DNA of 64,000 bases from Eledone cirrhosa. Lineage: Eukaryota. Where the stretch lies: assembly GCA_964016885.1 (NCBI GenBank), contig OZ024763.1:14074001-14138000 (forward strand), read 5' to 3'. This document shows, one piece after another, positions 8,190 to 55,258 of the stretch. Each line of letters starts with the position of its first letter. Position 1 is the stretch's first letter. The position numbers and the translations under genes are program-made. Below the pieces are notes generated by a model. That model worked only from the letters and a program-made list of their open reading frames with translations, had not been told where the DNA came from and ran no database searches.

Positions 8190-9285
8190 TTACTCTGGTG
8201 CAGTTGTGTCCTTAGTAAGGAGACAGACAAGGTTACCCTGGTGTTGTGATGCCCTTTGTAAGTTGAGAAACAGACAAGAGTTACCCTGGTGCTGTAGTGT
8301 CCTTTGTAAGGAGAGAGACAAGGTTACCCTGGTGCTGTGATGTCCTCTCTAAGTTGAGAAACAGACAGACAAGGTTACCCTGGTGTTGTGATGCCCTTTG
8401 TAAGTTGAGAAACAGACAGAGTTACCCTGGTGCTGTAGTGTCCTTTGTAAGGAGAGAGACAAGGTTACCCTGGTGCTGTGATGTCCTCTCTAAGTTGAGA
8501 AACAGACAGACAAGGTTACCCTGGTGCTGTGATGTCCTTTGTAAGTTGAGAAACAGACAGAGTTACCCTGGTGCTGTAGTGTCCTTTGTAAGGAGAGAGA
8601 GACAATGTTACCCTGGTGCTGTGATGTCCTCTCTAAGTTGAGAAACAGACAGACAAGGTTACCCTGGTGCTGTGATGTCCTTTGTAAGTTGAGAAACAGA
8701 CAGAGTTACCCTGGTGCTGTAGTGTCCTTTGTAAGGAGAGAGAGACAAGGTTACCCTGGTGCTGTGATGTCCTCTCTAAGTTGAGAAACAGACAGACAAG
8801 GTTACCCTGGTGCTGTGATGTCCTTTGTAAGTTGAGAAACAGACAGAGTTACCCTGGTGCTGTAGTGTCCTTTGTAAGGAGAGAGAGACAATGTTACCCT
8901 GGTGCTGTGATGTCCTCTCTAAGTTGAGAAACAGACAGACAAGGTTACCCTGGTGCTGTGATGTCCTTTGTAAGTTGAGAAACAGACAGAGTTACCCTGG
9001 TGCTGTAGTGTCCTTTGTAAGGAGAGAGAGACAATGTTACCCTGGTGCTGTGATGTCCTCTCTAAGTTGAGAAACAGACAGACAAGGTTACCCTGGTGCT
9101 GTGATGTCCTTTGTAAGTTGAGAAACAGACAGAGTTACCCTGGTGCTGTAGTGTCCTTTGTAAGGAGAGAGAGACAAGGTTACCCTGGTGCTGTGATGTC
9201 CTCTCTAAGTTGAGAAACAGACAGACAAGGTTACCCTGGTGCTGTGATGTCCTTTGTAAGCTGGAAAACAGACAAGGTTATTCTT
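8190..9285. repeat. Minisatellite of 43-51 bp monomers arranged as a 141-143 bp trimeric higher-order repeat
   Basis: Monomer core GTTACCCTGGTGCTGT; A-type monomer starts at 8280, 8421, 8562, 8705, 8848, 8991, 9134. Confidence 0.95.
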
Positions 9286-11825: not shown

Positions 11826-12286
11826 AACTTACACTCAGGAGGCACCTCCTAATCCAATATACACCCTCCACTTCCACCCATACCACCCTTACTCTGTAAA
11901 GTTATGTTCGTACCACAAAACATGCAGCCCATGCTGTAAAGAGGTCTTGTAGGTGTCATGACAAAAAGCACTGAGTCCACACTGTAAATGTGGTTGGAGT
12001 TAGGAAGGGTATCCAGCCGAAGAAAACCAGCCAGTACAGTCCTATACGAGTGAGACTCAGTCACCTAACTTGCCTCAAATAGGGCAAAGCCGTCTAACCC
12101 ATGCTACCATGGAAGATAAAGGTTAAACGATGATGATGATGATGGTGATGATATATATATATATATGTATGTATATATAATTTATATATATATATATTAA
12201 AAAATAAATTTAGAAATTTATTTCTCTCACTAGCACAGCTGTACATAAATGAAAGTATGCATATGTACACACACACACACGCACAC

Positions 12287-12318
<32 letters not shown>

Positions 12319-12476
12319 ATAAAACACAAACAGTTTGGATCTAACTTTCAAAATGGCTGGAGCTCAGCCGTCAGGGTCCTGAATCTTTTTCATATATATA
12401 TATACACATCATCATCATCGTTTAACGTCCATTTTCCATGCTAGCATGGGTCCCTCCATGATTTTCCATATGTATA

Positions 12477-12765
12477 TCACTGTGTATTTCTCCCGTCTTT
12501 GTCCAAGGAGTAGAGTTTCAGTTCTTTTAGCCAGTCCCAGTATCTTATCTCCTTCATCATTGCAATCCTCTTGGTGTAGCTTCGTTGGATTGCCTCAAAC
12601 TCCATGGTTAGTTTGACACTATGGGGTGACCACAGCTGGGAGCAATAGTCCAGGCGGCTTAGGACAAATATCCTCCATAGTATCAACATGGTTTTTTGGT
12701 CTCTTGTCCGGGAAGTCCTCAAGATCCAGCCAGCGAGTCGTCTGCACATTGTTGCCACCCTCATG
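12477..12765 (-). mobile_element. CR1/L2-like LINE reverse-transcriptase C-terminal fragment
   Basis: GWILRT...VLSRLDYCSQLWSP...EAIQRSYTKRI...YWDWLKELKLYSL. Confidence 0.85.
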
Positions 12766-13780
12766 ATGTATAGGTAGACAGCTAGAATTTGAACAGGAAA
12801 AACAGAAAAACATAATGATGGAATAAAGCTTACTTCTGTTATTTTGATTTGTTGATATGCTCCATGCTGAAATTTGGTGTTGTTTTCTCAAAGCAGTGGT
12901 TGAAATATATAACAGCAAAAATGAATAGACTAAGTTAATTTTAACCTGTTTACTTACATTTCTTATTTTTAAATTACTCCGGAGTAAACAGGCCCACCTG
13001 CGCACTTCGTGGAGTGCTCTACCCTGCATACTGAAGTGTCAGTAATTAATCAACATATACTAGAATATATATATGTATATATATATGGGATAACAAATTA
13101 TCGTTATAGGTAATCTAGTTAGAGGTTGTGAATACTCCGTATTGTGGATAGTTTTAACGTACGCCGTTGTTTGATTCAACAAGAGGTTTCCATAGTTAGG
13201 CAGCGAGTTCTCGGGAATTCTTATGTAGGTTAATCTTGGAGTAATAATAGTGAAAGAGTGAAGAATAACATACGAGTAAGATATGGTCACCTGATCAATC
13301 TTGCCTCAAGTGGGACAATTCCCGTCTAACCCATGCTAGCGTGGAAGATGGACGTTAAAGACTTCATTTATACCATAAACGTGGTTTTGTCTTTGCGTGT
13401 AATTGTTCTCACCGCTCCAAATAATGACGTATTATCTTCACTTTTTTTCCGTTCATTGCCAGGGAACGTCTCTTTGAACCAAAGTATCGTCTTCCTGTTT
13501 TCCTTCAGTTGCAACGTTTTTCGAAATATTTACTTCTGCGTTCACAGATTGATTTTTTTAGTTTCAGAAGATCCCGTTAAGGGTGAAAGCAGCGATTCTT
13601 TGCTTAAACTTTAATCTGTTATTTAAAAAAAAATATATATATATATATGCTGAGGTTATATTTAATTTGTTGGGATTCAACAAGCTTAAACATTTTTATA
13701 ACTGATATAAAGCACTCAACAGTTTAGTGGAGTAAATACACAATATATTAATAAATGGAACCTATATTTATAAAACCATA

Positions 13781-13850
13781 TTTATTTTATTATACATATT
13801 TCAAGGGCAACCAAGGCAAATTATGGTGCGCTTTCATCAGATAAAATACA
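13781..13850 (-). ncRNA. Type-I hammerhead ribozyme, intact core
   Basis: Minus strand: tgTATTTTAT CUGAUGA aagcgcacc-loop-ggttgccctt GAAA tatgta UA ATAAAATA; 8-bp stem I, imperfect stem II, minimal stem III. Confidence 0.7.
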
Positions 13851-13899
13851 GATTTGTTTTATAAATAAATATTGACATACCCGGAAATATATTTTTTAG

Positions 13900-14124
13900 G
13901 ACAAGGATTCTACGGTTGTGAAGTTGTTTGTTGACAATGATCAGAAGCCAGTTCGGACAACCAAGATCCGACTCCAGGACACCTGGAGTGAACAAGTTCC
14001 TCTCAACAGCTACGCCAACATGCCAATACAACTACAGGTGTTTACGTCAGTAGCCCTTAACGACGTCGAGGAAGAAGAACCAGAATTTGAAGACCGGCTG
14101 AACGGCTACCTTGGTCTCATGTAG
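13900..14124 (+). CDS. Possible orphan terminal exon (74 codons plus stop), product unknown
   Basis: ATTTTTTAG|GAC acceptor, open frame DKDSTVVKLF...GYLGLM*, non-repetitive composition; no upstream exon found. Confidence 0.25.
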   Translation, partial: DKDSTVVKLFVDNDQKPVRTTKIRLQDTWSEQVPLNSYANMPIQLQVFTSVALNDVEEEEPEFEDRLNGYLGLM

Positions 14125-15039
14125 AACTGGACATTGGTCAAACAGCTAATTTTGGCCTCTTGTAATTGTAACGCTAACCAACAACACTAACACCACTATT
14201 TCAGTCCAGAAATAGCCGTCGAAACGGCTTGAGCTCTGCCGTCGGGGTTAAACATTTTCCTATTACCCACTCTACTACCCTAAGTATTGAGTACTTTGGT
14301 GCATTATGGTCCATCTGGTTCCTTACCAGACTTCCTTCGTTATATATATATATATATCCATCCATCTATAAGATGGGCACACAAATCTAAACTGCCACTC
14401 AAATATTTTTCAAATGAAATTTCTTTTTCTTTCTATGAGTGAAATATTTGAAAGTAATTTGTTTAAAGTATATATACAGACAAACTACACACATATATAC
14501 ATTTTTAATACAACCAGATACACTTAGGCTTCATCACAAACAGTGTATAGACCATTCCACTAGTATATACACTGATAAACACATTCTCACATGTTCTCCT
14601 TTTTCTATTTCCTAATCTCTAAACTATTGTATTCTCCTGATGAAGGACTATTATCCGATATGTCAAACTTTTTCTCTCTTTCATCCAAAGTGTGAAATTA
14701 ATAGACTAATTGTTTTTGTATCTCCGTGTTGTTTCCTTGAGCAAGACACTTTATTTCACATTGCTCCAGTTTACTCAGCTGTAGAAATGAGATGTTAGGA
14801 CTGGGGTCACTATCATTCCACTGCAAAGTGGTCGTGGAAGTGCCATGGCAAAAAAGCACCCAGCACTCACTGTAAATGAGGTTGGTGTTAGGAAGGGCAT
14901 CCAGCTGTAGAAATCAAGCCAGAATCAGTTCCCGTCCCACCCTTGCAAGCAGGGAAAAGCGGACGTAAAATGATATACTACACTACTTTGTCATTTATAT
15001 ATATATATCATCATCATCGTTTTTACGTCCGCTTTTTCA

Positions 15040-15312
15040 TGGGTCCTTCTCAGCATTGCATCTTTCCACTTGTCTCTGCCAGTCTTAGCGATTTGAGGTC
15101 CGCTCTCACAACCTCTTCCCAGGTCTTTCTGAGACATACTCTATTGCAGTTTCCTTCTGTGATTTCTTCACCTATCGGTCATTGTCCATGTTCGTACAAG
15201 CACAGTCTTCTCTCCTGCAGACCTTGGATTCCCCTCAAGCCCAGCTTTTTTCTTAGCTCATCTAAGGTCTGCCTTTCCCTCACATTTACATTCCACATCC
15301 AATGAAACATAG
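15040..15312 (-). mobile_element. RTE LINE 3' fragment
   Basis: Reverse complement similar to 55670-55980 (LRKKLGLRG, QERRL, KTWEEVVRADL). Confidence 0.65.
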
Positions 15313-15343
15313 TTGCTTCATTTCTCACAACCTATGTTTCATT

Positions 15344-15590
15344 ACCAGGAGAGGCGGTTGCGCTGGTATGGACATGTGATGCGTATGAAGGATGACAGCT
15401 GCATAAAAAGGTGCAGAGCACTAGAAGTCGATGGAAACCGCGGAGTGGGGAGACCCAAGATAACTTGGGCTGAGGTGATAAAAGCCGACCTTACCCAATT
15501 ACACCTCTCAAAGGCGATGACACACGACCGTGACCTCTGGCGTCACGCAGTAATACAGAGTACCCGACCTCCCATGGGTACAAGCTGAAG
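15344..15590 (+). mobile_element. RTE (BovB-like) LINE 3' fragment
   Basis: QERRLRWYGHVMRM...GRPKITWAEVIKADL...DRDLWR. Confidence 0.85.
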
Positions 15591-16459
15591 CATATAGACA
15601 ATATGCCCCCACACCCCCCACCGAAAGGTGGTCGTGGAGGTGCCACGGCAAAAAAGCACCCAGCCCACACTGTAAAGTGGACGTGTAGGCGCCACGAAAA
15701 AGCACCCAGTACTCACTGTAAATGAGGTTGGTGTTAGGAAGGGCATCCAGCTGTAGAAATCAAGCCAGAATCACTTCCTGTATGAGCAAGACATGGTCAG
15801 CTGACCAGACACTGCCCACAACAAGACAACCCGTCTAACCCATGCTAGCGTGGAAGAACGGACGTAAAACGGTGATGATATATATATATATATATATGTA
15901 TACACACACACATACATATATGATCGCCGCCACTCGATTTCGAGTAATGTCGTCACTTGATACTTAAGCATGATTATCACGGACAGGGTTTTTTAGTCCT
16001 GCTATGGCCAGCAATATCACGCATCACACAAAATGTCACATATCAAGCGATGCCTGTGCTTGAAGCTTTTAAAGTAAGGAATGACTTTGCACAGGGCCAA
16101 TCCTGCGATAGACCAGCGTCCTATCCAGGGAGAGTCTTGTACTCTCAGACACTTGAAACCTGGTGATAAACTTTACAGAACAGACTTTAACTTAATTATA
16201 TATATACTAAATCTTAAATTGTTGATTGATACTAATTAATAAAATCGACAGTTTGCATATTTTTTATTTATTTCCAAAAACAGATTAGTTACCATCTTGA
16301 AGTATATTTACTTACATGTTACTTCCGTATCATTCCATTTCCATTTCTATAAATGGAATGATAGTGAAGTAACACGGAATATATTTTAAGGCGTGTTATC
16401 TCGCTTCCTTCCTGTTTCTTTGTATATATTTTAAAAAATAAAGTAAGACTAATTTACTC

Positions 16460-16788
16460 AGTAGAATTGCGGCTTCGCGTGGCGATGCGCGTAGTGGTTC
16501 GGACTTTGTCGCCTACTTATGTATGGCGTGACCATTCTGTGTGTCTGAAGATCGAATAGTTGCGGTGGCATGCGGCCTTGTTGGCACCCGGGACTATTTG
16601 CAGGCTGGCTATATGCTGGCCTGTGTCTTGGACCGCGCGAGGAATCCATCTTTCCCACTTTTGCTCTAAATTTGATTAGAGTTATCTCCCTTTATTTAGA
16701 GTGACTTCCCCTTTATGGAATTCTTTTTTTTTTTATTGACTTCCGGTCAAAATCATTCTGGATATTATATTCATGTCAAGAGGTATGT
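16460..16788 (+). promoter_or_regulatory. CpG-rich promoter-like segment with ETS site and candidate first splice donor
   Basis: Local CpG/GC enrichment 16460-16650; AGAGTTATCTCCCTT; GACTTCCGG (ETS-like) at ~16738; AG|GTATGT at 16782/16783. Confidence 0.35.
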
Positions 16789-18970
16789 AATGTTTTTATT
16801 TGCTCAACCTTCTCTCTATGCATGTTATTAGATACACTATATGTCATTAACTCTCACATTAATGTTTTATTTGCCGTGTATTAGGCTTGTACATTTTATT
16901 CTAAGAAACTAAACCCCTTTCTAGCACTTCTAAAAATCATAACTAAACACATACATACAGCTACATTTTATCTTTCTGGCACTTCTTCACCCACATTCTT
17001 TCTTTTAACATAAACAAACTAGACATAGTTATTCTTTATATATACATCTTTTTCTTTTTCTAAGAAATAAGAAACTAAACTTTCTTTCAGCGCTATATAC
17101 AAACGTTGCTCTCTTTAGTTATTCAACACACACACATTTTATTATCTTGTCTAACTTATAGTATAAGATGTAGCGTGCCATGACTGGCTCTAGATACTGT
17201 ATCATGTTTTGTACGTGGGTAGTACCCTCTTCTGCTGCTAATTAAGTCACCTAGGTATGAACCACTTCTATTACCCCTGTGCATCTTTTATATAAAGTCG
17301 TCAGATAATTTAACTTACTTTGTCACACTGAATCGCCCTGAGAATTACTTCATCTATGGTCTTAGTTTCTTTTCATACACTTGATGGGACTGCATGGCTA
17401 ACGTAGGTCCCTTCTGTATATATATATATATATATACTTACATATTTTAAAAGACAAAATTGAAAGAATTTTATAAAGTTTAACATTTGTTTTATTGACA
17501 ACGTATGTAAATGGCTTTCATCGTTTTTCTTATTTCATTACAGATGTCCAGCCTTCTTAGTCATATGCCGTGTTGTTTGTAACCACAGAGTATGTACAAG
17601 TCGGAATGGCGAAGTTATCTGTTAATAAAGAAATGTTTACATATTATATACGAATTGTGTTCAGTTTATTTTAACAAAAAACACTTGAGCGCTGAGGCTC
17701 ATGAACAAAGAAAATCTCCACATATTATATACGAGTTATGTTACTATTAGCCTTATAAATCATCGAAAGAAGAGAGGTCTACATTCTAAAAATCTCTGTT
17801 ATAATCGATATATATATAATTGTTTCTACTTTTGGCACAAGGCCAGTAATATGTAGAAGTGTCTAAGAATGTAAATGAAGTGTGTTTGAAAATGTAAAGA
17901 AAAAAAAAAATATATATATATAAGTACATTTGGCTGCTATTTCTGGCAGGTTTAGAATTTACTATTTTCCAAACAGAATTCTGTTTTACACCCCTCACTC
18001 TGAACTCAATTTCAAATTACCGAGGAGTTTGTTGAAGCAGGTTTCAACTGAAATATCTACACCGGTAACTTAATTAGTGTTACACCGGTATCCCGTAGGC
18101 ATAACTTCGAATGAGGTACTGGTTTTTTCGCTGTCTTAAATGGAGTATATACGCACACAATGCTTATATATAAATTAATGTTTTTCCTCTGTACAAAGAG
18201 ATTGACATCATTTCTTAAATCATTATTTAGGGTTTTACAACAAAATATATTGTATGTGTAATTATACATACATTGAATTTAAGTATTTATTTTTTAATTT
18301 TACATACACTTTAGTAGTGTATATATATATATATATATTCATTTGTGTGTGCGTTAATTTCGTAGGTAACCGTTAACGTTCGTCTCGTGTTGGGTTTTAT
18401 TCCAGAGTTAAAGCGACTAGAGTGTGAATAATAAAGTAAGAAAGATCGAAAACACTTGCTGTATATATATATATATATATAAATTTTATTGGCACATTAG
18501 AATTGTTTCAATATTGATAGCTCCGCAGTACACAATCATAATATGTATATATTTTTCACATGAAATCAATATTCAAACTGACCCCAGTGTGTTTATTTTA
18601 AAGTAACGTAATTCTACCTCCCAGGGATTTGAACACAGTTTCATGTTACTGGGTGGTACAATGAAGCAGAGAATATAAAATCGCTACACAGGTGACATAT
18701 TTAGTGTTTCACCGGTTTTCTTATAATACACTGGATACGACGTGCATGATAGAGGTAAATGAAATCATCATTATTTTACATTGACGCTATACATATGTTC
18801 ATGCATAGAGTATACACCCCCCATATATATATATATATATATGCAAAAGTTTTATTTAAAATTGTTGGGTTACAACGAGTAAATATTTTATAACTGATAT
18901 AAAGCACTCAACAAGTTTTGGAGTAGATATACGATATTAAACAAATGGAAACTATATTTATAAAACCATA

Positions 18971-19040
18971 TTTATTTCATTATACATATTTCAGGGATAC
19001 CATATTAAAAATATGGCATGCCTTATTTAGATAAAATACA
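18971..19040 (-). ncRNA. Hammerhead ribozyme relic (core mutated to CUAAAUA)
   Basis: Same flanks and stem I/III as the 13781 copy; long stem II retained. Confidence 0.5.
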
Positions 19041-19460
19041 ATATATAAGCAGTTTTATAAATAAATTTGACGTACCATAAATATTGTTCAACTTCCATTT
19101 AAAAAAGTTGGTTTGGTAGTATATATATATATAATTCAGATGATAAAAGTTGGTTGATCGTATAATCGGCCGACCTTTTTGTAAACAACCGTAATGCACT
19201 CTACGATTTGTATTGCTTAGGGTTTTCTCGGTAATGTGTTAACCGGAGTTTCAATATAATGAATAAGAGAGACGTTTATGTATGAATAAAACCGTATGTA
19301 TGTATGCACACACACACATATATATATATATATAAACATGTATATTTATGTATAAAATATATTTGTATATGTATGAATGTATATATATATATATATATAT
19401 ATACTGCCAATACTGGATTTGAACCATCAAGACTGTTGAGGTATGTCATACATCAATTCA

Positions 19461-19530
19461 TGTATTTTATCTGACGAGGACGTACTGAAAAAACAGCACA
19501 GTACTTTCGAAATATATATAATAAAACATA
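19461..19530 (+). ncRNA. Type-I hammerhead ribozyme, intact core
   Basis: TGTATTTTAT CUGACGA GGACGTACTG-loop-CAGTACTTTC GAAA TATATA UA ATAAAACATA; stems I and II each 9/10 paired. Confidence 0.75.
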
Positions 19531-20285
19531 TTTTGATTATGTGAATGTCTTCATTTATTAATATTTTGAATAATATCAATAACTCCAGAAAACTTCTTTG
19601 TAGAGTGCTTTTAATCTATTGTAAAACTATATTCATTGAGTAATCAATGAACCATATTAATCTTTGGTTAGGTATATATAGTAAAGTTTATATTTTATTT
19701 TATGTATTCACTGCTGAGTGAAGTTAAGTGACCTCTCATTTATTTGCTCTAATTTATTTTACTAATCTGTATTCTGAAGACATATTTTCGTTGGTGTACC
19801 TTACGATTTTGTTGATGAAATTTCTCTCGTCTTTAGATCATTATTTCTTATAAAAGTTATAATACTCACCTCTTCCCATTACATCTATATTTTACTTCTG
19901 GAATACTGTATTATCATTTATATTTTCGTGTCCATATTATTAAATAATAAGGTTGTTATGTAATATTTACAATACCGACTATAGATAAGGGGAAGTGGGG
20001 AGGGTAATTATTTAATCAGAGCTAATCCCACACCCTCTGTTTTTAGATTACACCAGGGTTTCCCAACATGGGTGATTTCATATATACATACACATGTATA
20101 TATATTTACACATATATCGACAAATGTATATAAATGTCTTCACACACGATCGACTGTCGATATATATAAGGACATTTAAATAAATCTAAGGTAAAAGACT
20201 AATTGTCAACAATATCTTTTGCATTTGCCTTCTTTATTCTATGTCCATACCTGCATTGTTTTGGCTTTATTATACATATACAAAC

Positions 20286-20378
<93 letters not shown>

Positions 20379-21121
20379 ACATCTATGTAAATATACATAT
20401 ATATTAAAAACATATACCATCATAATAACGATTGACTAACCGTCAGGACACATGCTCGCTCTTGTGAAAATTCTCACAGACACTTACGAAATCCGAACTT
20501 GCTACCCCACGTACACTTACATACACAGACGAGGTATGACTTATATAGGTACATCAAAGTTTATGTTCCACTCTTGCTCCATTCGAGGTAGATAAAACGA
20601 AGTACCAGTATAGTACCGGGGTCGTTTCTTCTTCTATATCTTTTTCTTACTTCCGTTCTCCTACTCTCTATCCTTCTCTGGAAAAATATCTCCTCTGATC
20701 AGATCTGGGGTAGAGATGCTATCTGTCAGCTTTCACAAAATACTTTCGACACCCCGAATGTCAATGTGGCACCTCTACGACTCCCTCACAAGTTATGGGA
20801 CCTTACAGACATACATAGCAACATCAGACAAATCCTTTATGTAGATCTCTTTTACTCGATGATGGAAGACAAGTTTTCAGTGAGTCAGAAAGGAATATTT
20901 GCGATATGAAGGGAGAACCTCTCTGAATAAATATTAGATAGTTAAGATGCTACGTAAAGCAGGCGGTGACAACATCGAGGACCAGAGATGCCATGTGGAA
21001 ATCGACATCGACATATAAATATACAAAGATAGGGGGACCTTATCATCATAGACACTTGGGCTTATGAATACACACACAAATATATATTTATATATATACG
21101 TGTGTGTGTGTGTGTGTGTGT

Positions 21122-21154
<33 letters not shown>

Positions 21155-21156
<2 letters not shown>

Positions 21157-21238
21157 GCAGGACTAGAACGGTTTCATTCGGAAGAAATCAAGTGCTTTCC
21201 TGATGATTTCTTCCGAATGAAACAGTTCTATCTTGTAG
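21155..21238. repeat. Palindromic foldback/MITE-like element
   Basis: ~35-bp arms CTGCAGGACTAGAACGGTTTCATTCGGAAGAAATCA / TGATTTCTTCCGAATGAAACAGTTCTATCTTGTAG; copies at ~37891, ~43598 and (inverted) 55437-55547. Confidence 0.75.
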
Positions 21239-24200
21239 AAGCCATTTCTATATTAAATATTATTTATTAAGTATCTATACTCTATGTAATGAGTACCTTA
21301 TTTACTGTGGTTACCGCCGATTGAACCCGGGATAAACATAGGTGTACGGTGTCCTGTCACACATCACTACATCTTCGAGTAAATGTTGATTAGTAAACAA
21401 AACCGTGTATCTCACATGTAAGAGGAAAACTATAGCAAGTGTTGAGGATAAGAGACGTGTGAAGATAATAATAATAGTGTTAAAATTATTAATAGTAGTA
21501 GTTGTAATGATAAAGTGAGGAGGACAACATTATTATAAATACTTATGTACACACAAGCTTACATAGGTACACGTATCTACACACATACGTACATAAACGT
21601 TTATAAATATAAGACGAAGCTGATAAAAAGAACATTACCGTATCACGTTTGGAACGTTACACTTGACGTTGAGTTCTTGAATCTGATCCCATCATCCTTT
21701 GCTGATACGATTATTGCACACACAACACAAGTTTAAAGAGTTGCCTGTTTAGAAACAATATTTCTAGGCCGCCATCTATTCACTAAGGTATGACAGTTGA
21801 AGAACATCACTGGACATCAGCTGGTCATTGGATGAAATAAACCTAAAGGGAAGAATAAAAGTCATGATATATTTTCTGAAAACTCCAGAAAAGTAAAAAC
21901 CAAGTCGACTCGTTTGAGGTATTAAGTCTGAGAAAGCCATGAACACCACCACGTCAATTAAGCTTCGAAAATAGGTTTATATATATATATATATATATTA
22001 ATTTTCAGTATATTTTTGGCCTATTGGTAGGTGTTAGAGATGGTGGAGATCGAAATTAGTAAAAATCCCTTATTTTATATAGATCCAGACCAGGATCTCC
22101 ACCGTCTCTCATACCTCCCACTAGGCTACAGAGACAGCTTGAAAATAATATTACTTTTTATTTTGGAAGATTAATTGAAGTGGTGGCGTTCATGCCTTTC
22201 TTAATGTTGCTGTTATTAGAAAGGGTCGACTTTATCTTTCATAATTCAGGGTCTTTCATGAAGTAAATATTCATTTTATTTCCTAATTCCCTAGAGTTGA
22301 TTTGAACCTACAATGATTTCGTCTGCAATACTGTTCACTAATTTCAAATCTGCCATAACTAAATCCTGTGTGCGACTTACAAATAAATTGTTAAACGTCA
22401 CCTTTTATCAATGTAAGATTGGAACCTACAGTGATGTGCTTTGCAGTAATGTCCCGTAACTCCAACTAGATTGCGCTAAGCTTGTATATTTCTTTCGTCC
22501 GAATAACAATGGTTTCGATCCCAGTTCGCTACTGGTACAAGAAATTCTATATCCCCAGCTAAATATTGAACTCCTAACGACATTTTATGTTACTCAATAC
22601 CAATAACCCCGTTACACACTGAACATCTAAGCCCTGAACACACATTTATATTTATAACTCAATTTCTAATTTTTAAATGATATTACACCACCTTTGTGTT
22701 CTCGGTGGATATTAATTTACAATTTTATAGCAGAAAAATAGAGTACCAGTCATTTTATAGGTTCAATTTAATCGATCGGCCCCCCCCCCTAAATCATTTG
22801 ACATTTGTCAAACGAAGACACACAAACAGTATATATATATATAATACGATAAATTATGTGTTTAATTAAGAAGAAGAATTATTGAAAGTAAGAAATTATA
22901 ATTATTTAGTAATAATATTTTTATTGTTTGTTTTCACTGCATTAACTGCGGAATGTTACTTATTTTTCTTCTGTAAATTGCGGTTGAGACGTTATTGGAT
23001 TATTACTAAGGTTTACTGGATGATGGCGTTTCCTTCTTACATTATTTTACAAACAGTGGACATCGGAACATCCCTCTATATACCTGGGATAAATGTAAGG
23101 AGCATTGTGATGTTATACATAGTACAATGGTCATCTCTTTCCCCAATTCTGTATTTAGAAGTCCTTTCATTATTTTAAATATTTCTATCATGTCACTCGT
23201 TTGATTAATCTCCTCCAAAGTTGTAATTCTAAGTGTTTGTCCTTGGTATAGTGAACTAATGTTGATATTTTCAAGTCTTGACATTTATATTTTATCCTGT
23301 CTCCCCTAAGATTTTAGATTTTTCAGCATTTAGTTAAGAAAAAGAACGTTTTATTATTTCCATTATCCGTCTCGCTGTTTTGCTTCAACATGGTTAGCCA
23401 TCTTTCAATTCTTACATATTCACAATTCTTCAGAGAGAAACAAGAGAGATGAGAAACGAGAGAGAGATCGAGAGAAAAGTAAAAACCAAGTCAACTTGTT
23501 TGTGGTATTAATAAGTCTGAGAAAGCCATGAACACCACCACGTCAATTAAGCTTCGAAAATAGAAAGTAGATTTATATATATATTAATTTTCAGTATATT
23601 TTTGTAGCCGTCTCGTTGGCCTATTGGTAGGTGTTAGAGACGGTGGAGATTAGTAAAACCCCCTTATTTTATATAGATTAATTGAAGTGGTGGCGTTTAT
23701 GCCTTTCTTAATGTTGCTGTTATTAGAAAGGGTCGACTTTGTCTTTCATGAAGTAAATATTCATTTTATTTCTTAACTCCCTAGAGTTGATTTGAACCTA
23801 CAATTACTTCGTCTGCAATAATGTTCACTAATTTCAAATCTGTCATAACTAAATCCTGTGTGCGACTTAGAAATAAATTGTTAAATGTCACTTTTATATA
23901 TTTACCAATGTAAGATTGGAACCTACAGTGATGTGCTTTGCAGTAATGTCCCGTAACTCCATCTAGATTGCACTAAGCTTGTATATTTCTTTCGTCCGAA
24001 TAACAATGGTTTCGTTCCCAGTTCGCTACTGTTACAAGAAATTCTATATCCCCAGCTAAATATTGAACTCCTAACGACATTTCATGTTATACCAATAACC
24101 CCATTACACACTGAACATCTAAGCCCAGAACACACATTTATAACTCAATTTCTAATTTTTAAATGATATTACCTTTGTGTTCTCGGTGGATATTAATTTA

Positions 24201-26421: not shown

Positions 26422-27002
26422 TTCAAAGTGTGGTGATGTGTGTTGTGTGGTGTATAGAAGGTAATGTGCGTTGTGTAGAGTGTGGTGTGTAGAGTATAAT
26501 GTGTGGTGAGTAGAACATAATGTGTGGTCAGTGATGTGTATGGCGTGGTGTGAGCACATGGTGTGTGAGTACATGTGTGGAGTATGTGGTGTGTAACGAG
26601 GGTGTGGTGTAATTATGTGTATGTGTGAGTGTTTAATGTGCTGTGTTAATGAGTGGACTGGAGTAAAAAGGAGTCACACAATCTTTAAAAGACCCTAAAT
26701 TAACTTGCCCTAATTACTATATATACTCAATTATAAGCCAATCCCTTTCTTATTTGAGAAATAGGACAGAATCCAAACCCCATTTATAAGCCATGGTGGC
26801 TAATCAACAGACGACAGTTTTGAAATTCTCATGAGTGGAGAATATATTTATGAAGTTTTAATATTTTGATATTTAAAATGTTTTAAGTGTCATTTAGAGT
26901 ATAGTTTTTATTTCACTTCTTTATGTAATGAGTTACCATTTTCTGATTGATTTCAAGGTCATATTCATTAAAAACCTCAAATATAATAGCAAATATAAAT
27001 TT

Positions 27003-27242
27003 CCCCTCCAAAGTGAAACTGGTGTAATATATTCCCCTGCAAAGTGAAACTGGTGTAATATTCACCTCCAAAGTGAAACTGGTGTAATATTCCAAAGTGA
27101 AACTGGTGTAATATATCCACCTCCAAAGTGAAACTGGTGCAATATTCCAAAGTGAAACTGGTGTAATATATCCACCTCCAAAGTGTAAACTGGTGTAATA
27201 TTCCAAAGTGTAAACTGGTGTAACATTCATCTCCAAAGCGAA
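27003..27242. repeat. Minisatellite CCAAAGTGAAACTGGTGTAATATT(CACCT), ~10 units
   Basis: Direct inspection; lies in the intron between exons A and B. Confidence 0.95.
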
Positions 27243-27755
27243 AATATTTTAGCACCTCATTTACATATAATTTTTAAGTTGGTGAAATCAAAATATTGAC
27301 CTCGAAGACAAGTCCTCCCCCCTATTTTACCATCAATATGTTGTCACATTTCTCAACATATATACAAGTATATACAATATTTACTTTACATAAATAGCAA
27401 ATCTTTTGATAATTTATGTAAACAGAATTATCCGAAACTAAATCTAATAAAATTTCTTTTAATTAAATTTAAGAAAAAAAATATAGTTTGAAAGAAAACT
27501 AGAGATCACTGCTCCGACCAAGGTGTAGGGGTCACTGATTTTGACCAAGGTGTAGGGGTCACGACATACAAAATAAACAGTACTCACTGTAAATGAGGTT
27601 AGCGTTTGGAAAGGCTTCCAGCTGTTAAAGCGAAGCCAAGATCAGTTCTGTATGAGCAAGACATGGTCACCTGACATTGCCCACGATAGGACAACTCGTC
27701 TAACCCATGCTAGCGTAGAAAAATGGACATTAAATGGTGATTATATATATATATA

Positions 27756-44482: not shown

Positions 44483-47400
44483 GATGGAGAGAGGGGTGGA
44501 GAGAGAGGGATGGAGAGAGAGAGAAAGAGATAGAGAGAGGGTGAATGGAGAGAGGGGTGGATAGAGAGAGAGTTGGATGGATAGAGAGAGGGAGAGAGAT
44601 GGATGGAGAGAGATGCAAAGAGAGAGGGGTGGAGAGAGAGTGAGGGATGGAAGGAGAGAGTGAGGGATGGAAGGAGAGAGTGAGGGATGGAAGGAGAGAG
44701 TGAGGGATGGAGAGATAGTGGAGAGTGAGGAATGGAGAGAGAGTGAGGAATGGAAAGAGAGAGAGGAATGGAAAGAGAGAGGGGTGGATGGAGAGAGAGA
44801 GATGGAAAGAGAGGGGTGGATGGAAAGAGTGAGGGATGGATGGAAGGAGAGAGGAATGGATGGAAGGAGAGAGGGAGAAGGATGGATGGAAGGAGAGAGG
44901 GAGAAGGATGGATGGAAGGAGAGAGGGAGAAGGATGGATGGAAGGAGAGAGGGAGAAGGATGGATGGAAGGAGAGAGGGAGATGGATGGATGGAAAGAGA
45001 GATGGATGGAGAGGGATGGATGGAAAGAGAGAGGGATGGATGGAGAGAGAGAGGGGTGGATGGAGAGAGAGAGAGAGGGATGGATGGAAGGAGAGAGAGA
45101 GAGGAATGGAGAGTGAGGAATGGGGAGAGAGTTGGATGGATAGAGAGAGAGAGGGATGGATGGAGAGAGAGGGAGTTGGATGGATAGAGAGAGGGAGAAA
45201 GATGAATGGAGAGAGAGAGGGGTGGAGAGAGGGATGGATGGAGAGAGAGAGAGGGATGGAAGGATAGAGAGAGATGGAAGGATAGAGAGAGAAAGGGGTG
45301 GATAGAAGGAGAGAGTGAGGAATGGAGAGAGAGAGAGAGTAGGATGGATGGATAGAGAGGGATGGATAGAGATGGAAGGATGGAGAGATGAAAGGATAGA
45401 GAGAGATGAAAGGATGGAGCGAGGGATGGAGAGAGAGAGGGATGGAGAGAGAGGGATGGATAGAGAGAGAGAGGGAGAATGATGGATGGAGAGAGGGATG
45501 GATAGGAGAGAGGGAGAATGATGGATGGAGAGAGGGATGGATGGAAGGAGAGAGGGATGGATGGAAGGAGAGAGAGATGGAAGGATAGAGAGAGAGAGGG
45601 ATGGATCGAGAGAGGGAGAATGATGAATGGAGAGAGAGAGGGATGGATGTAGAGAGCGATGGATGGAAGGAGAGAGAGAGAGGGGTCAAGAGAGGGATGG
45701 ATGGAGAGAGAGGGGTCAAGAGAGGGATGGATGGAAGGATAGAGAGAGAGGGATGGATGGAGAGAGAGAAGGAAGGATAGAGAGAGAGGGATGGATGGAG
45801 AGAGAGAAGGAAGGATAGAGAGAGAGGGAAGGATAGAGAGAGAGAGGGATAGAGAGAGAGAGAGGGATGGAAGGAGAGGGATGGGTGGAGAGAGAGAGAG
45901 AGAGAGGGATGGACCGATAGAGAGAGAAGGATGGATGGAGAGAGGGATGGAATGGACAGAGAGAGATGGAAGGAGAGAGAGGGATGGAAGGAGAGAGAGA
46001 GAGGGATGGAAGGGGAGAGAGAGAGGGGTATGGATGGAGAGGGAGAGAGAGAGGGTATGGATGTAGAGAGAGGGATGGAGAGAGATGGATGGAAGGAGAG
46101 AGAGGGATGGTTGAGAGGGAGAGAGAGGGGTATGGATGGAGAGAGGGAGAGATGTAGAGAGAGGGATGGAGAGAGAGAGGGAGGGATAGATGTAGGGAGA
46201 GGGGTGGATGAAGAGAGAGGGAGATGGAAGGAGAGGGAGGGGTGGATAGAGAGAGAGAGGGGTGGATAGAGAGAGAGGGGGGGGGGGTGGATAGAGAGAG
46301 AGGGGGGGTGGATAGAGAGAGAGGGGGGTGGATAGAGAGAGGGGGGTGGATAGAGAGAGAGGGGGGTGGATAGAGGGAGAGAGAGATGGAGAGAGAGAGA
46401 GAGGGATGGATGTAGAGAGAATGATGAATGGAGAGAGGGATGGATGTAGAGAGAGGGATGGAGGGAGAGAGAGAGAGGGAGGGACGGAGAGAGGGGTGGA
46501 TAGAGGGAGAGGGGTGGATGGAGAGAGAGCGAGAGAGGGAGAAGGATGGATGGAAGGATAGAGAGAGGGATGGATGGAGAGAGAGGGATGGAGGGAGAGG
46601 GATGGAAGGAGAGAGAGGGAGTACGATGAATGGAGAGGGATGGATGTAGAGAGAGGGAGTACGATGAATGGAGAGAGGGATGGATGTAGAGAGAGGGAGG
46701 GATGGATGTAGAGAGAGAGAGGGGTGGATGGAAGGATGGAGAGAGAGGGGTGGATGGAAGGATGGAGAGAGAGGGGTGGATGAAGAGAGAGAGGGATGGA
46801 TGAAGAGAGAGAGGAATGGGGAGAGAGAGGGAGATGGATAGGAGAGAGATGGATATAGAGAGTGAGGAATGGAGAGAGAGAGATGGAAGGATAGAGAGAG
46901 GGATGGATGGAAGGAGAGAGAGAGATGGAAGGATAGAGAGAGAGGGATGGAAGGTGAGAGAGAGAGTAGGGATGGATGGATAGAGAGGAATGGAAGGAGA
47001 GAGGGGGATGGAAGGAGAGAGGGGGATGGATGGAGAGAGGGAAGGATGGATGGAGAGAGGGAAGGATGGATAGAGAGAGGAAGAGGGATGGAGAGAGGGA
47101 GGGATGGAGAGAGGGAGGGATGGAGAGAGGGGGTAGGGATGGATGGATAGAGAGAGGAATGGAAGGAGAGAGAGAGAGAGGAATGGAAGGAGAGAGAGAG
47201 AGAGGAATGGATGGAGAGAGAGGAATGGATGGAGAGAGAGGGATGGAAGGAGAGAGAGAGAGAGAGAGAGATGGATAGAGAGAGGAATGGAAGGAGAGAG
47301 AGAGAGAGGGGGATGGAAGGAGAGAGAGAGAGAGGGGGATGGATGGATAGAGAGAGAGAGGGGGATGGATGGATAGAGAGAGGAATGGAAGGAGAGAGAG

Positions 47401-50354
47401 AGGGATGGATGTAAGGAGAGAGAGAGAGAGGGATGGAGAGAGAGAGGGAGAGGGATGGAGAGAGAGAGAGAGAGAGAGGGATGGAAGGAGAGAGAGGGAG
47501 AGGGATGGAGAGAGAGAGAGGGAGAGGGATGGAGAGAGAGAGAGAGGGATGGAAGGAGAGAGAGAGGGAGGGAGGGATGGAAGGAGAGAGAGAGAGAGAG
47601 AGGGATGGAGAGAGAGAGGGGGTAGGAGAGAGGGATGGATGTAGAGAGAGAGAGAGGGGTGGAGAGAGAGGGATGGAGAGAGAGAGAAAGAGAGAGGGGT
47701 GGAGAGAGAGAAAGAGAGAGAGAGGCTGAATGGAGAGAGAGTTGGATGGATAGAGAGAGAAAGGGTGAATGGAGAGAGAGTTGGATGGAGAGAGAGAGAA
47801 AGAGAGAGGGGTGGAGAGAGAGAAAGAGATAGAGAGGGTGATAGAGAGAGAGTTGGATGGATAGAGAGAGTGAGGGATGGAAGGAGAGAGTGAGGGATGG
47901 AGAGATAGTGGAGAGTGAGGAATGGATAGAGAGAGAGGAATGGAAAGAGAGAGAGAGGAATGGAAAGAGAGAGGGGTGGATGGAGAGAGTGAGGGATGGA
48001 TGGAAGGAGAGAGGAATGGATAGAGAGAGAGAGAGGGAGAAGGATGGATGGAAGGAGTGAGGGATGGATGGATGGAAGGAGAGAGAGGGATGGATGGATG
48101 GAGAGAGAGAGGGATGGATGGATGGAGAGAGGGATGGAGAGGGATGGATGGAGAGAGAGAGGGATGGATGGAAGGAGAGAGAGGAATGGAGAGTGAGGAA
48201 TGGGGAGAGAGTTGGATGGATAGAGAGAGAGAGGGATGGATAGAAGGAGAGAGAGAGAGGGATGGATAGAAGGAGAGAGAGAGAGGAATGGAGAGTGAGG
48301 AATGGGGAGAGAGTTGGATGGATAGAGAGAGAGAGGGATGGAAGGATAGAGAGAGAGAGGGATGGAAGGATAGAGAGAGAGGGAAGGAAGGATAGAGAGA
48401 GAGGGAAGGATAGAGAGAGAGAGGGAAGGATAGAGAGAGAGAGGGAAGGATAGAGAGAGGGATGGATGTAGAGAGCGATGGATGGAAGGAGAGAGAGAGG
48501 GATGGCAGGAGAGAGAGGGGTCAAGAGAGGAATGGATGGAGAGAGAGAGAGAGAGAAGGAAGGATAGAGAGAGAGGGAAGGATAGAGAGAGAGAGAGGGA
48601 TAGAGAGAGAGAGAGGGATGGAAGGAGAGGGATGGGTGGAGAGAGAGAGAGAGAGGGATGGACCGATAGAGAGAGAAGGATGGATGGAGAGAGGGATGGA
48701 ATGGACAGAGAGAGATGGAAGGAGAGAGATGGATGGAAGGGGAGAGAGAGAGGGATGGAAGGGGAGGGAGAGAGAGAGGGATGGAAGGGGAGGGAGAGAG
48801 AGAGGGGTATGGATGGAGAGGGAGAGAGAGGGTATGGATGTAGAGAGAGGGATGGATGGAAGGAGAGAGAGAGGGATGGTTGAGAGGGAGAGATGTAGAG
48901 AGAGGGATGGAGAGAGAGAGGGATAGATGTAGGGAGAGGGGTGGATGAAGAGAGAGGGAGATGGAAGGAGAGGGAGGATAGAGAGAGAGAGGGGTGGATA
49001 GAGAGAGGGGGGGTGGATAGAGAGAGAGAGAGAGATGCAGAGAGAGAGGGATGGAGGGAGAATGATGAATGGAGAGAGGGATGGATGGAGGGAGAATGAT
49101 GAATGGAGAGAGGGATGGATGGAGGGAGAATGATGAATGGAGAGAGAATGATGAATGGAGAGAGGGATGGATGTAGAGAGAGGGGTGGATGGAGAGAGGG
49201 GGTGGATGGAGAGAGGGGGTGGATAGAGGGAGAGGGGTGGAGAGAGAGAGAGAGAGAGAGAGAGGGAGAAGGATGGATGGAGAGAGAGAGAGGGAGAAGG
49301 ATGGATGGAAGGAGAGAGAGAGAGGGAGAAGGATGGATGGAAGGAGAGAGAGAGGGAGGAATGGATGGAGAGAGAGGGATGGAAGGATAGAGAGAGGGAT
49401 GGATGGAGAGAGAGAGGGATGGATGGAGGGAGAGGGATGGATGGAGGGAGAGGGATGGAAGGAGAGAGAGAGGGATGGAAGGAGAGAGAGAGGGAGTACG
49501 ATGAATGGAGAGGGATGGATGTAGAGAGAGGGAGTACGATGAAAGGAGAGAGGGATGGATGTAGAGAGAGGGAGGGATGGATGTAGAGAGAGAGAGGGGT
49601 GGATGGAAGGATGGAGAGAGGGGTGGATGAAGAGAGAGAGGGATGGATGAAGAGAGAGAGGAATGGGGAGAGAGAGATGGAAGGATAGAGAGAGGGATGG
49701 ATGGAAGGAGAGAGAGAGAGATGGAAGGATAGAGAGAGAGAGGGATGGAAGGTGAGAGAGAGAGAGAGGGGGGAAAGGGATGGAAGGAGAGAGAGTAGGG
49801 ATGGATGGAGAGAGGGAAGGATGGATAGAGAGAGGAAGAGGAATGGAGAGAGAGGGGGTAGGAGAGAGAGAGAGGGGGTAGGAGAGAGAGAGAGGGGGTA
49901 GGGATGGATGGATAGAGAGGAATGGAAGGAGAGAGAGGGGGATGGATGGAGAGAGAGGAATGGATGGAGAGAGAGGGATGGAAGGAGAGAGAGAGAGGGA
50001 TGCATGGAGAGAGAGAGATTAGGGATGGATGGATAGAGAGAGGAATGGAAGGAGAGAAAGAGAGAGGGGGATGGATGGAGAGAGGGAGTAGGGATGGATG
50101 GATAGAGAGAGGGATGGAAGGATAGAGAGAGAGAGGGAAGGATGGATAGAGAGAGGAAGAGGGATGGAGAGAGAGGGAGGGATGGAGAGAGGGAGAGAGG
50201 GGGATGGATGGAGAGAGAGGAATGGATGGAGAGAGGGAGAGAGGGGGATGGATGGAGAGAGAGGAATGGATGGAGAGAGGGATGGAAGGAGAGAGGGAGA
50301 GATGGATGGATAGAGAGAGGAATGGAAGGAGAGAGAGAGAGAGAGAGAGGGATG

Positions 50355-50401
<47 letters not shown>

Positions 50402-50594
50402 GGATGGATGTATATATATATATATATAGAGAGAGAGAGGGATGGATGTATAGAGAGAGAGAGAGGGATGGAAGGAGAGAGAGAGAGGGATGGAAGGAGA
50501 GAGAGAGATGGATGTATAGAGAGAGAGAGAGAGAGGGATGGAAGGAGAGAGGGATGGAAGGAGAGAGAGAGAGAGATGGAGAGAGAGAGAGAGG

Positions 50595-50642
<48 letters not shown>

Positions 50643-50866
50643 AGGAGAGAGAGGGATGGAAGGAGAGAGAGGGATGGAAGGAGAGAGAGAGAGAGGGATG
50701 GAAGGAGAGAGAGAGAGAGGGATGGAAGGAGAGAGAGGGATGGATGGAGAGAGAGAGAGAGGGATGGAGAGAGGGATGGAGAGAGGGAGAGGGATGTATG
50801 TAGAGAGAGGGATGGATGGAGAGAGAGGGGGTAGGGATGGATGTAGAGTGAGAGGGATGGAGAGAG
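44483..50866. repeat. 6.4 kb polypurine tract (GAGAGAGGGATGGA-type low-complexity satellite)
   Basis: Direct inspection; contains internal block duplications such as 45.75-46.3 kb ~ 48.5-49.0 kb. Confidence 0.97.
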
Positions 50867-50969: not shown

Positions 50970-51780
50970 CTACACAAGATAGAAAATATACAGAAAGTAA
51001 TATAATTGTTTCTACTTTTGGCACAAGTCCAGCAATTACCCACTGGTAATTTATTTTATCGACCCCGTAATGATGAAAGACAGTTAACCTCGGCCGGATT
51101 TGAACTCAGAATGGAAAGGGGCGTAATTCTATGCGTCAAAGCATGGCGTCCGACGGTGTAGTGTGGTGATATGTGTGGTGATGTGTGTGGTGTGGTGTGT
51201 AGAAGGTGATGTGTGTGGTGTGTAGAAGGTGATGTGTGTGGTGTGGTGTGTAGAAGGTAATGTGCATTGTGTAGTGTGTAGAGTGTGGTGTGTAGAGTAT
51301 AATGTGTGGTGTGTAAAACATAATGTGTGGTCAGTGATGTGTATGGCGTGGTGTGTGCACATGGTGTATGAGTACACGTGTGGAGTATGTGGTGTGTAAC
51401 GAGGGTGTGGTGTAATTGTGTGTATGTGTGAGTGTTTAATGTGCTGTGTTAATGAGTGGACTGGAGTAAAAAGGAGTCACACAATCTTTAAAAGACCCTA
51501 AATTAACTTGCCCTAATTACTATATATACTCAAATAAAAAAGGGATTGGCTTATAATTGAGAAATAGGACAGAATCCAAACCCCATTTATAAGCCATGGT
51601 GGCTAATCAACAGACGACAGTTTTGAAATTCTCATGAGTGGAGAATATATTTATGAAGTTTTAAGTGTCATTTAGAGTATAGTTTTTATTTCACTTCTTT
51701 ATGTAATGAGTTACCATTTTCTGATTGATTTCAAGGTCATATTCATTAAAATCATCCAACATAATAGCAAATACAAATTT

Positions 51781-54726: not shown

Positions 54727-55258
54727 AGAAAATATTATAGCACCTCATTTACATATAATTTTTAAGTTGGTGAAATCAAAATATTGACCTCGAAGACAAG
54801 TCCTCCTCCCTATTTTACCATCAATATTTTGTCTCATTTATCGACATATATACAAGTATATACAATATTTACTTTACATAAATTATCAAAAGATTTGCTA
54901 TTTATGTAAACAGAATTATCCGAAACTAAATCTAATAAAATTTCTTTTAATTAAATTTAAGAAAAAAAAATAGTTTGAAAGAAAACTAGAGATCACTGCT
55001 CCGACCAAGGTGTAGGAGTCACTGATTTTGACCAAGGTGTAGGGGTCACGACATACAAAATAAACAGTACTCACTGTAAATGTGGTTAGCGTTTGGAAAG
55101 GCTTCCAGCTGTTAAAGCGAAGCCAAGATCAGTTCTGTATGAGCAAGACATGGTCACCTGACCTGGCTTTGCCCACAATAGGACAACTCGTCTAACCCAT
55201 GCAAGCGTAGAAAAATGGACATTAAATTGTGATTATATATATATATATATATATATAT

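Follow-up and report, generated by a model that had tools for sequence, protein, structure and literature searches.

Penelope-like elements (PLEs) of the Hydra clade are diagnosed by RW[K/R], DKT (not DKG), CxCx5C, CxxC and CxH motifs, by a hammerhead ribozyme, and by a (TA)n target (PMC8557442; Craig et al. 2021), and the supplement of that work includes Hydra-1_Obim from Octopus bimaculoides, with both a hammerhead and a (TA)n target. Covariation among consensus families of PLE hammerheads has likewise been described (PMC4209133; Cervera & de la Pena 2014), and a Poseidon PLE studied in vitro uses two internal start sites for reverse transcription and inserts independently of its hammerhead (PMC11167929; Frangieh et al. 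2024). Non-LTR retrozymes, lacking long terminal repeats (LTRs), are defined by tandem units, each with a hammerhead (PMC7229834; bioRxiv 10.64898/2026.07.22.740005). Here, we consider three short repeat copies, c1, c2 and c3, in 64,000 nucleotides of the Eledone cirrhosa genome (assembly GCA_964016885.1, contig OZ024763.1, positions 14,074,001 to 14,138,000 of the forward strand; hereafter the window). An earlier note on this DNA, made from its letters alone, had seen in them a candidate retrozyme or Penelope-LTR family and had favored a non-autonomous, self-cleaving retroelement.

It is highly probable that the three copies are 5'-truncated terminal repeats (pseudo-LTRs; pLTRs) of protein-coding, Hydra-motif Penelope-like retrotransposons, likely inserted into (TA)n by target-primed reverse transcription from RNA whose hammerhead was uncut. 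They are read as 5'-truncated pLTR ends because the same sequences adjoin open reading frames (ORFs) for a reverse transcriptase (RT) and a GIY-YIG endonuclease, because of the architecture of one long copy (locus L082), and because of the Hydra-clade motifs in the protein. The novelty lies in the set of families only; the kind is already published, since hammerhead-bearing pLTRs, inverted pairs, covariation, and (TA)n targeting have all been reported for PLEs, and the clade is known from Octopus. These particular families were not found in literature searches directed at octopus, cephalopod, Hydra or dimeric PLE hammerheads (for supplements, that of PMC8557442 only), and the main text of a 2026 paper on O. 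vulgaris repeats makes no mention of hammerhead, ribozyme or Hydra. Their value is as material, comprising young subfamilies (95-99% identity), thousands of datable insertions, and near-intact ORFs, and they offer a ready system for two open points, namely the origin of the tail and inverted pairs and the role of the pLTR hammerhead.

Pseudo-LTR copies and the elements they terminate

All three copies lie where the earlier note had placed them, with limits here slightly refined, and the motifs and stem II arms that it quoted are correct. The copies, their hammerheads, the adjoining (TA)n tracts, and one hairpin are as follows.

13633..13648, no strand: (TA)n target tract at the c1 3' end, in the window sequence
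13649..13886, minus strand: c1, subfamily A pLTR plus tail, 5'-truncated, with its 5' start ~46 nt before the hammerhead core and its stop at the long 3' end
13783..13850, minus strand: c1 type I hammerhead, with core CTGATGA at 13840-13834, stem I, stem II carrying one bulge and a C.C mismatch, GAAA, stem III of 2 bp with a loop of 4 nt, and a predicted cut after 13791
18843..19119, minus strand: c2, subfamily C solo pLTR plus tail, reaching from the ACT boundary as far as the long end and flanked by (TA)n on each side; two duplicated loci lack it
18973..19040, minus strand: c2 hammerhead, core damaged and predicted inactive (CTAAATA at 19030-19024; the family reads CTGAAGA)
19380..19402, no strand: (TA)n tract on the 5' side of c3, in the window sequence
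19403..19668, plus strand: c3, subfamily B solo pLTR plus tail, spanning the ACT boundary to the long end
19461..19528, plus strand: c3 type I hammerhead, with core CTGACGA at 19471-19477, stem II at 19478-19508, GAAA, and a predicted cut after 19520
19582..19610, plus strand: ACTCCA...GAGTGC hairpin of c3, opening the tail immediately after the short 3' end, with equivalents in c1 and c2

In a search within the window, c1 and c2 are 81% identical across 258 nt (E 9e-57), and c1 and c3 are 65-68% identical (E 0.017 and 3e-5). The copies belong to three young, high-copy subfamilies (c1 to A, c3 to B, and c2 to C); the three copy queries gave 1058, 1696 and 2089 candidates, and the 40 scored per query were 95-100% identical. 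Two exact subfamily-A motifs had 2258 and 3697 matches genome-wide, whereas their reversed controls had 0, which argues that the family is not a product of chance.

The clearest view of what the copies belong to comes from loci where the same sequence extends further. For example, a c1-like copy, L061, when extended, was found to comprise a truncated RT, a cysteine linker, a GIY-YIG-type endonuclease, and a 1.3-kb 3' untranslated region (3'UTR), followed by the same pLTR with its hammerhead in sense orientation. In 16 of 16 loci selected for containing a long endonuclease frame, a c1-like pLTR lies on the same strand, 1.2-2.0 kb downstream. Locus L082 runs from an upstream pLTR through a ~140-nt leader, a 743-codon ORF, and a 1.3-kb 3'UTR to a downstream pLTR, and L098 has the same pLTR-leader-ORF start; among 11 ORF-linked pLTRs, four match c1 itself at 97.9% identity. 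For subfamily B, RT and endonuclease lie upstream of the c3-like copy in one of three extended loci (L063), with a protein 51-53% identical to that of subfamily A. For subfamily C, ORF pieces of 65-80% identity were found upstream of c2-like copies in seven of ten chosen loci, a figure not to be taken as a rate because six of these loci had been selected for being widely spaced inverted pairs.

All three subfamilies are thus found as ends of ORF-bearing copies, 1.2-2 kb downstream of a same-strand RT and GIY-YIG ORF, and the proposal that they form a non-autonomous retroelement is not sustained. The link to Penelope LTRs, also proposed in the earlier note, is borne out, and a match to an ordinary Penelope LTR, which that note had named as evidence against its own retrozyme reading, is what is seen on the DNA side. 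The observation that no RT ORF accompanies the copies locally is correct as well, since a tblastn search of the window with the family ORF was empty. Longer copies (L082, L098, and L061) have the features of endonuclease-bearing (EN+) PLEs, including a single RT and GIY-YIG ORF, pLTRs derived from partial tandems, an inverted 5'-truncated partner, and an optional tail. Other PLE insertions account for a GIY-YIG fragment close to L057 and for the RT/EN frames of L062 and L064, all of which were set aside; RT or GIY-YIG frames of other PLE families occur within a few kb of sampled copies at L062:7281-8486, L064:1401-2858, L094:1738-2879, and L096:2606-3889.

The motifs RWR, DKT, CxCx5C, YVGST, CxxC, and CxH were all found in natural ORFs. 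L082 carries RWR at 39 (a conservative change from RWK) and DKT at 122, and L085 carries the TMGS/YRDD and YVGST motifs. CxCx5C and CxxC are present in five of five ORFs checked, and the C-terminal CxH in four subfamily-A ORFs, with the L063 frame ending before CxH; no CCHH was seen in the ORFs when judged by eye. The sense hammerhead near the 3' end and insertion into (TA)n are further traits of the Hydra clade, and a likeness of the ORF to the letters of Hydra-1_Amil is apparent by eye. From its motifs, the ORF likely carries the Hydra-clade diagnosis; Neptune, the first candidate for the clade, was dropped once compared with the published Hydra diagnosis. The best named homologues, from a bivalve and from Argonauta, are 36-41% identical, and the one from the bivalve carries GIY-YIG PF01541.

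The present families therefore resemble the Hydra clade, including Hydra-1_Obim, as described by Craig et al. (2021; PMC8557442), in having a single ORF with RT and with GIY-YIG at its C terminus, the RW[K/R], DKT, CxCx5C, CxxC, and CxH motifs, a sense hammerhead near the 3' end, a (TA)n target, and 5'-truncated and inverted insertions with an optional tail. Hydra-1_Obim is nonetheless a different family, with a hammerhead that differs in all stems and an annotation in PMC8557442 without a pLTR. Relative to the Hydra elements reported there, the present families are ~4 kb in length with a 1.3-kb 3'UTR, have a tail of 80-100 nt rather than 30-40 bp, and possess a long stem II with a conserved mismatch at pair 4, and their copies are far above what the small number of Hydra families in that report suggests.

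The insertions in the window also have separable histories. The preference for (TA)n holds, but the claim that all copies abut such tracts needs amendment, as c3 has a tract on its 5' side and a mere remnant on its 3' side. The c2/c3 region (17926-21571) has been segmentally duplicated; it exists in at least three copies that are 85-92% identical, among them L068 and L069 (C24, about 26.0 and 27.0 Mb). Both of these duplicates carry c3 together with an empty (TA)n site in the place of c2; hence, c2 and c3 are independent insertions, c3 having inserted before the duplication and c2 after it. A single inverted insertion of c2 and c3 is thereby ruled out, and the "divergently inverted" pair of the earlier note is correct in orientation but represents two separate events.

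The hammerhead motif and its stem II

The hammerhead fold proposed earlier stands, with a type I layout, intact cores in c1 and c3, and paired stems. The three copies share one layout, with a stem I of 8 bp, CTGANGA, a long stem II and GAAA, a stem III of 2 bp whose loop reads ATRT, and UA as the predicted cleavage site. In c2 the core reads CTAAATA for CTGANGA, whereas CTGAAGA stands in 19 of its 19 closest copies; the damage is thus private to c2, and we discarded the notion of subfamily C spreading with a dead ribozyme. An intact core is present in 69 of 87 pieces spanning the motif. An Rfam scan of the whole window at E<=1 listed no hammerhead family, and single-sequence folds did not recover the active hammerhead as the minimum-energy form.

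Covariation was assessed in a ten-row alignment of the three window copies and seven subfamily representatives, three rows being near-duplicates. In this alignment, 89% of cells pair and both sides have changed at 10 of 17 pairs; none of 500 shuffles matched the observed pairing, and slid controls paired at 32-53%. These figures serve as support rather than as a p-value because relatedness among rows inflates such counts. Stem II had been described as fully covarying, and compensatory changes are indeed found across subfamilies, but it is not fully paired: pair 4 is mismatched in all ten rows, and c1 is bulged in addition. Pair 4 is C.C in six of eight cluster representatives (for example, L063:5473-5537). 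The mismatch is kept even in a distant family that otherwise differs in stems I and II, and it is not evident in the six Hydra hammerheads listed in the supplement of PMC8557442.

Like the PLE hammerheads (min-HHR) described by Cervera & de la Pena (2014; PMC4209133), the present motifs are type I, lie in pLTRs, combine a short palindromic-type stem III with a long helix II, form many consensus families with compensatory changes, and occur mostly in single truncated copies or in opposite-strand pairs 100-700 bp apart. Unlike the ones reported there, they have a stem I of 8 bp and a stem II of up to 14 positions with an internal C.C, and ~80,000 motifs of one design are found here, as opposed to thousands per genome. 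Given such an abundance, hammerhead matches in the present genome are to be presumed PLE ends until arrays or circles are shown.

Ends, insertion, and competing explanations

End statistics were gathered from 100 position-ordered subfamily-A loci (70 tail-motif and 30 middle-motif anchors), which held 140 pieces from ~92 insertions; they cover subfamily A only, in the first 167 Mb of one contig, by exact-motif anchors, with a few duplicated loci included. Positions are counted from the C of CTGATGA, with predicted cleavage after +50. The 3' ends fall at two fixed sites ~95 nt apart, at about +98 (57 pieces) and at about +193 to +197 (82 pieces), and a TA run adjoins 131 of 139 3' ends. Among 48 head-to-head pairs, 46 join a long with a short end, and an inverted partial partner is also present in 21 of 30 c3-like loci. 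The long arm begins at or after +90 in 21 of the 46 long and short pairs, which is what blocking of the first primer by the second on a single RNA would produce; the arms overlap in the other 25, which need displacement or two RNAs. At three unlinked loci, L119, L146, and L211, the inverted junction is identical, with the short arm reaching -84 and the long arm beginning at +100; either twin priming happened repeatedly or a composite underwent copying.

At the other end, 40 of the 56 pieces reaching -74 stop within the 13 nt from -86 to -74, a wall ~84 nt upstream of the core; the corresponding ACT boundary is where c2 and c3 start. No accumulation of 5' ends was seen at the predicted cleavage site when it was sought, with only 2 of 102 pieces ending near there. 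In A, B, and C alike, the subfamily begins with (T/C)CACT(A/G), which we take to resemble an initiator element. The tail between the two 3' ends is part of the leader before the ATG; since this tail continues TATAT in ORF-bearing copies, the long end sits at a TA-like word. The ACTCCA/GAGTGC hairpin is invariant in the tails of ten representatives, in which a second hairpin is also found, and, being conserved in sequence, it offers little evidence of covariation.

These ends suggest a route of insertion in which the endonuclease would nick (TA)n on both strands, and each resulting 3' end would prime at one of two internal sites on uncleaved RNA, producing head-to-head long and short pairs. Most cDNAs would stop early or run off the RNA 5' end ~84 nt before the core. 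PLE hammerheads are said to cleave as dimers (work attributed to Lunse et al.). To judge from published work, a hammerhead with a 2-bp stem III may cut only slowly, as a dimer or with protein assistance, and would be dispensable for insertion.

It is tempting, if rather speculative, to suggest that the ends record the PLE life cycle more fully. In such a scheme, the RNA would have a fixed start 84 nt before the core and a ~280-nt terminal redundancy, and a single uncleaved RNA would be primed by both nicked (TA)n strands, at two TA-like sites, one on either side of the ACTCCA/GAGTGC hairpin. Most copies would then be run-off cDNAs of the RNA 5' end, akin to LTR strong-stop DNA, rather than truncated 3' ends, and the pair-4 mismatch would be a switch or protein contact that holds the ribozyme inactive while copying proceeds.

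The end statistics fit the in vitro finding of uncleaved RNA as the template and carry it to a second clade. As reported for Poseidon PAc of Anolis (PMC11167929; Frangieh et al. 2024), two adjacent internal RT start sites would define the tail, and copies would derive from uncleaved RNA. The PAc start sites, in contrast, lie inside the ORF and are not target-homologous, whereas those of the present families would lie upstream of the ATG, ~95 nt apart, at TA-like letters able to pair with a (TA)n primer.

A retrozyme origin, in which tandem hammerhead repeats would be processed to circular RNAs of 250-400 nt and reverse-transcribed in trans, is very improbable. The copies do share a type I hammerhead, a length of ~250-300 nt within the retrozyme range, low GC (24-28%), and pLTR ancestry with metazoan non-LTR retrozymes, which are reported to be pLTR-derived (PMC7229834; bioRxiv 10.64898/2026.07.22.740005). 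Unlike those elements, however, the present families form no tandem arrays in the sampled loci, and their sequence is joined to an ORF in longer copies. The tandem multimers that the retrozyme reading implied are nearly absent from the sampled loci on one contig, with one same-strand pair bearing two hammerheads among 140 subfamily-A pieces and no same-strand neighbours within 1 kb among the 100 motif matches listed; the near-absence of ends at the cleavage site and the attachment of these sequences to RT and GIY-YIG ORFs also speak against it. Mere chance likeness among AT-rich sequence beside microsatellites is more remote still and practically negligible: although AT makes up 72-76% of the copies and the Rfam scan brought up no hammerhead, the pattern for the present hammerhead design has 80,274 genome matches versus 146 for its reversed control, family matches number in the thousands, and the stems hold compensatory pairs.

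Somewhat less remote, though still unlikely, is the possibility that an internal promoter starts transcription of many solo pLTRs at the ACT boundary and that they move as 280-nt RNAs, similar to short interspersed nuclear elements (SINEs), with the Hydra protein supplied in trans, a scenario that is compatible with their being pLTRs. The sharp 5' wall would fit such RNAs, but a full-length mRNA with a 5' pLTR explains it equally well. Also in keeping with the scenario are c2 and c3, both of which extend exactly from the ACT boundary to the long end, and the ORF-bearing pieces, which are far fewer than short ones. Solo copies have another solo copy as nearest neighbour a little more frequently (median 97.9% versus 96.8%), although this gap is expected because the sample sizes are unequal, and mean identity between solo and ORF-linked copies (94.2%) is no lower than that among solo copies (93.5%). 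No clear solo-specific lineage or diagnostic variant emerged among 39 solo and 11 ORF-linked copies, a comparison of little power in which the best substitution occurs in 7 of 39 versus 0 of 11.

Several points nevertheless weigh against the view of the copies as pLTRs of Hydra-type elements. Pfam searches of the family's own ORFs, in pieces and whole, gave no RT or GIY-YIG match; the domains are called via motifs and homologues, and the clade via the motifs, the hammerhead, and the (TA)n target. No fully intact ORF was found, L082 having YRDY and TMRS for YRDD and TMGS, and the ORF linkage of subfamily B comes from one locus, L063. At ~4.0 kb, owing to its 1.3-kb 3'UTR, L082 exceeds the "generally <3 kb" given for Hydra (a tendency and not a strict criterion), and the longer tail departs from the clade as well. 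Finally, the end statistics have the compass given above, and the 5' wall fits short RNAs from solo copies too.

Neighbouring sequence in the window

An exon-like frame of 74 codons (13891-14124, plus strand) follows an TTTTTTAG acceptor, starts ~13 nt from c1, and has no Pfam match. The sole paralogue (L250; G000:C24:13775747-13779055), which is 94% identical, holds a subfamily-C copy of opposite orientation in the same (TA)n tract, indicating that the c1 site was hit twice independently. Other high-copy repeats at 12090-15870 and 14203-14340 end in (ATG)n or (TA)n, along with a repeat with an internal palindrome, and recur beside PLE ends in many loci; these are probably SINE-like elements, or elements resembling miniature inverted-repeat transposable elements (MITEs), that use the same tracts. 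Large tandem arrays are located at 8221-9274, 27001-27243, 44483-50866, and 51779-54731, and include a 143-nt unit (98% identity), two sites with a 24-55-nt unit, and a GA-rich tract of 6.4 kb.

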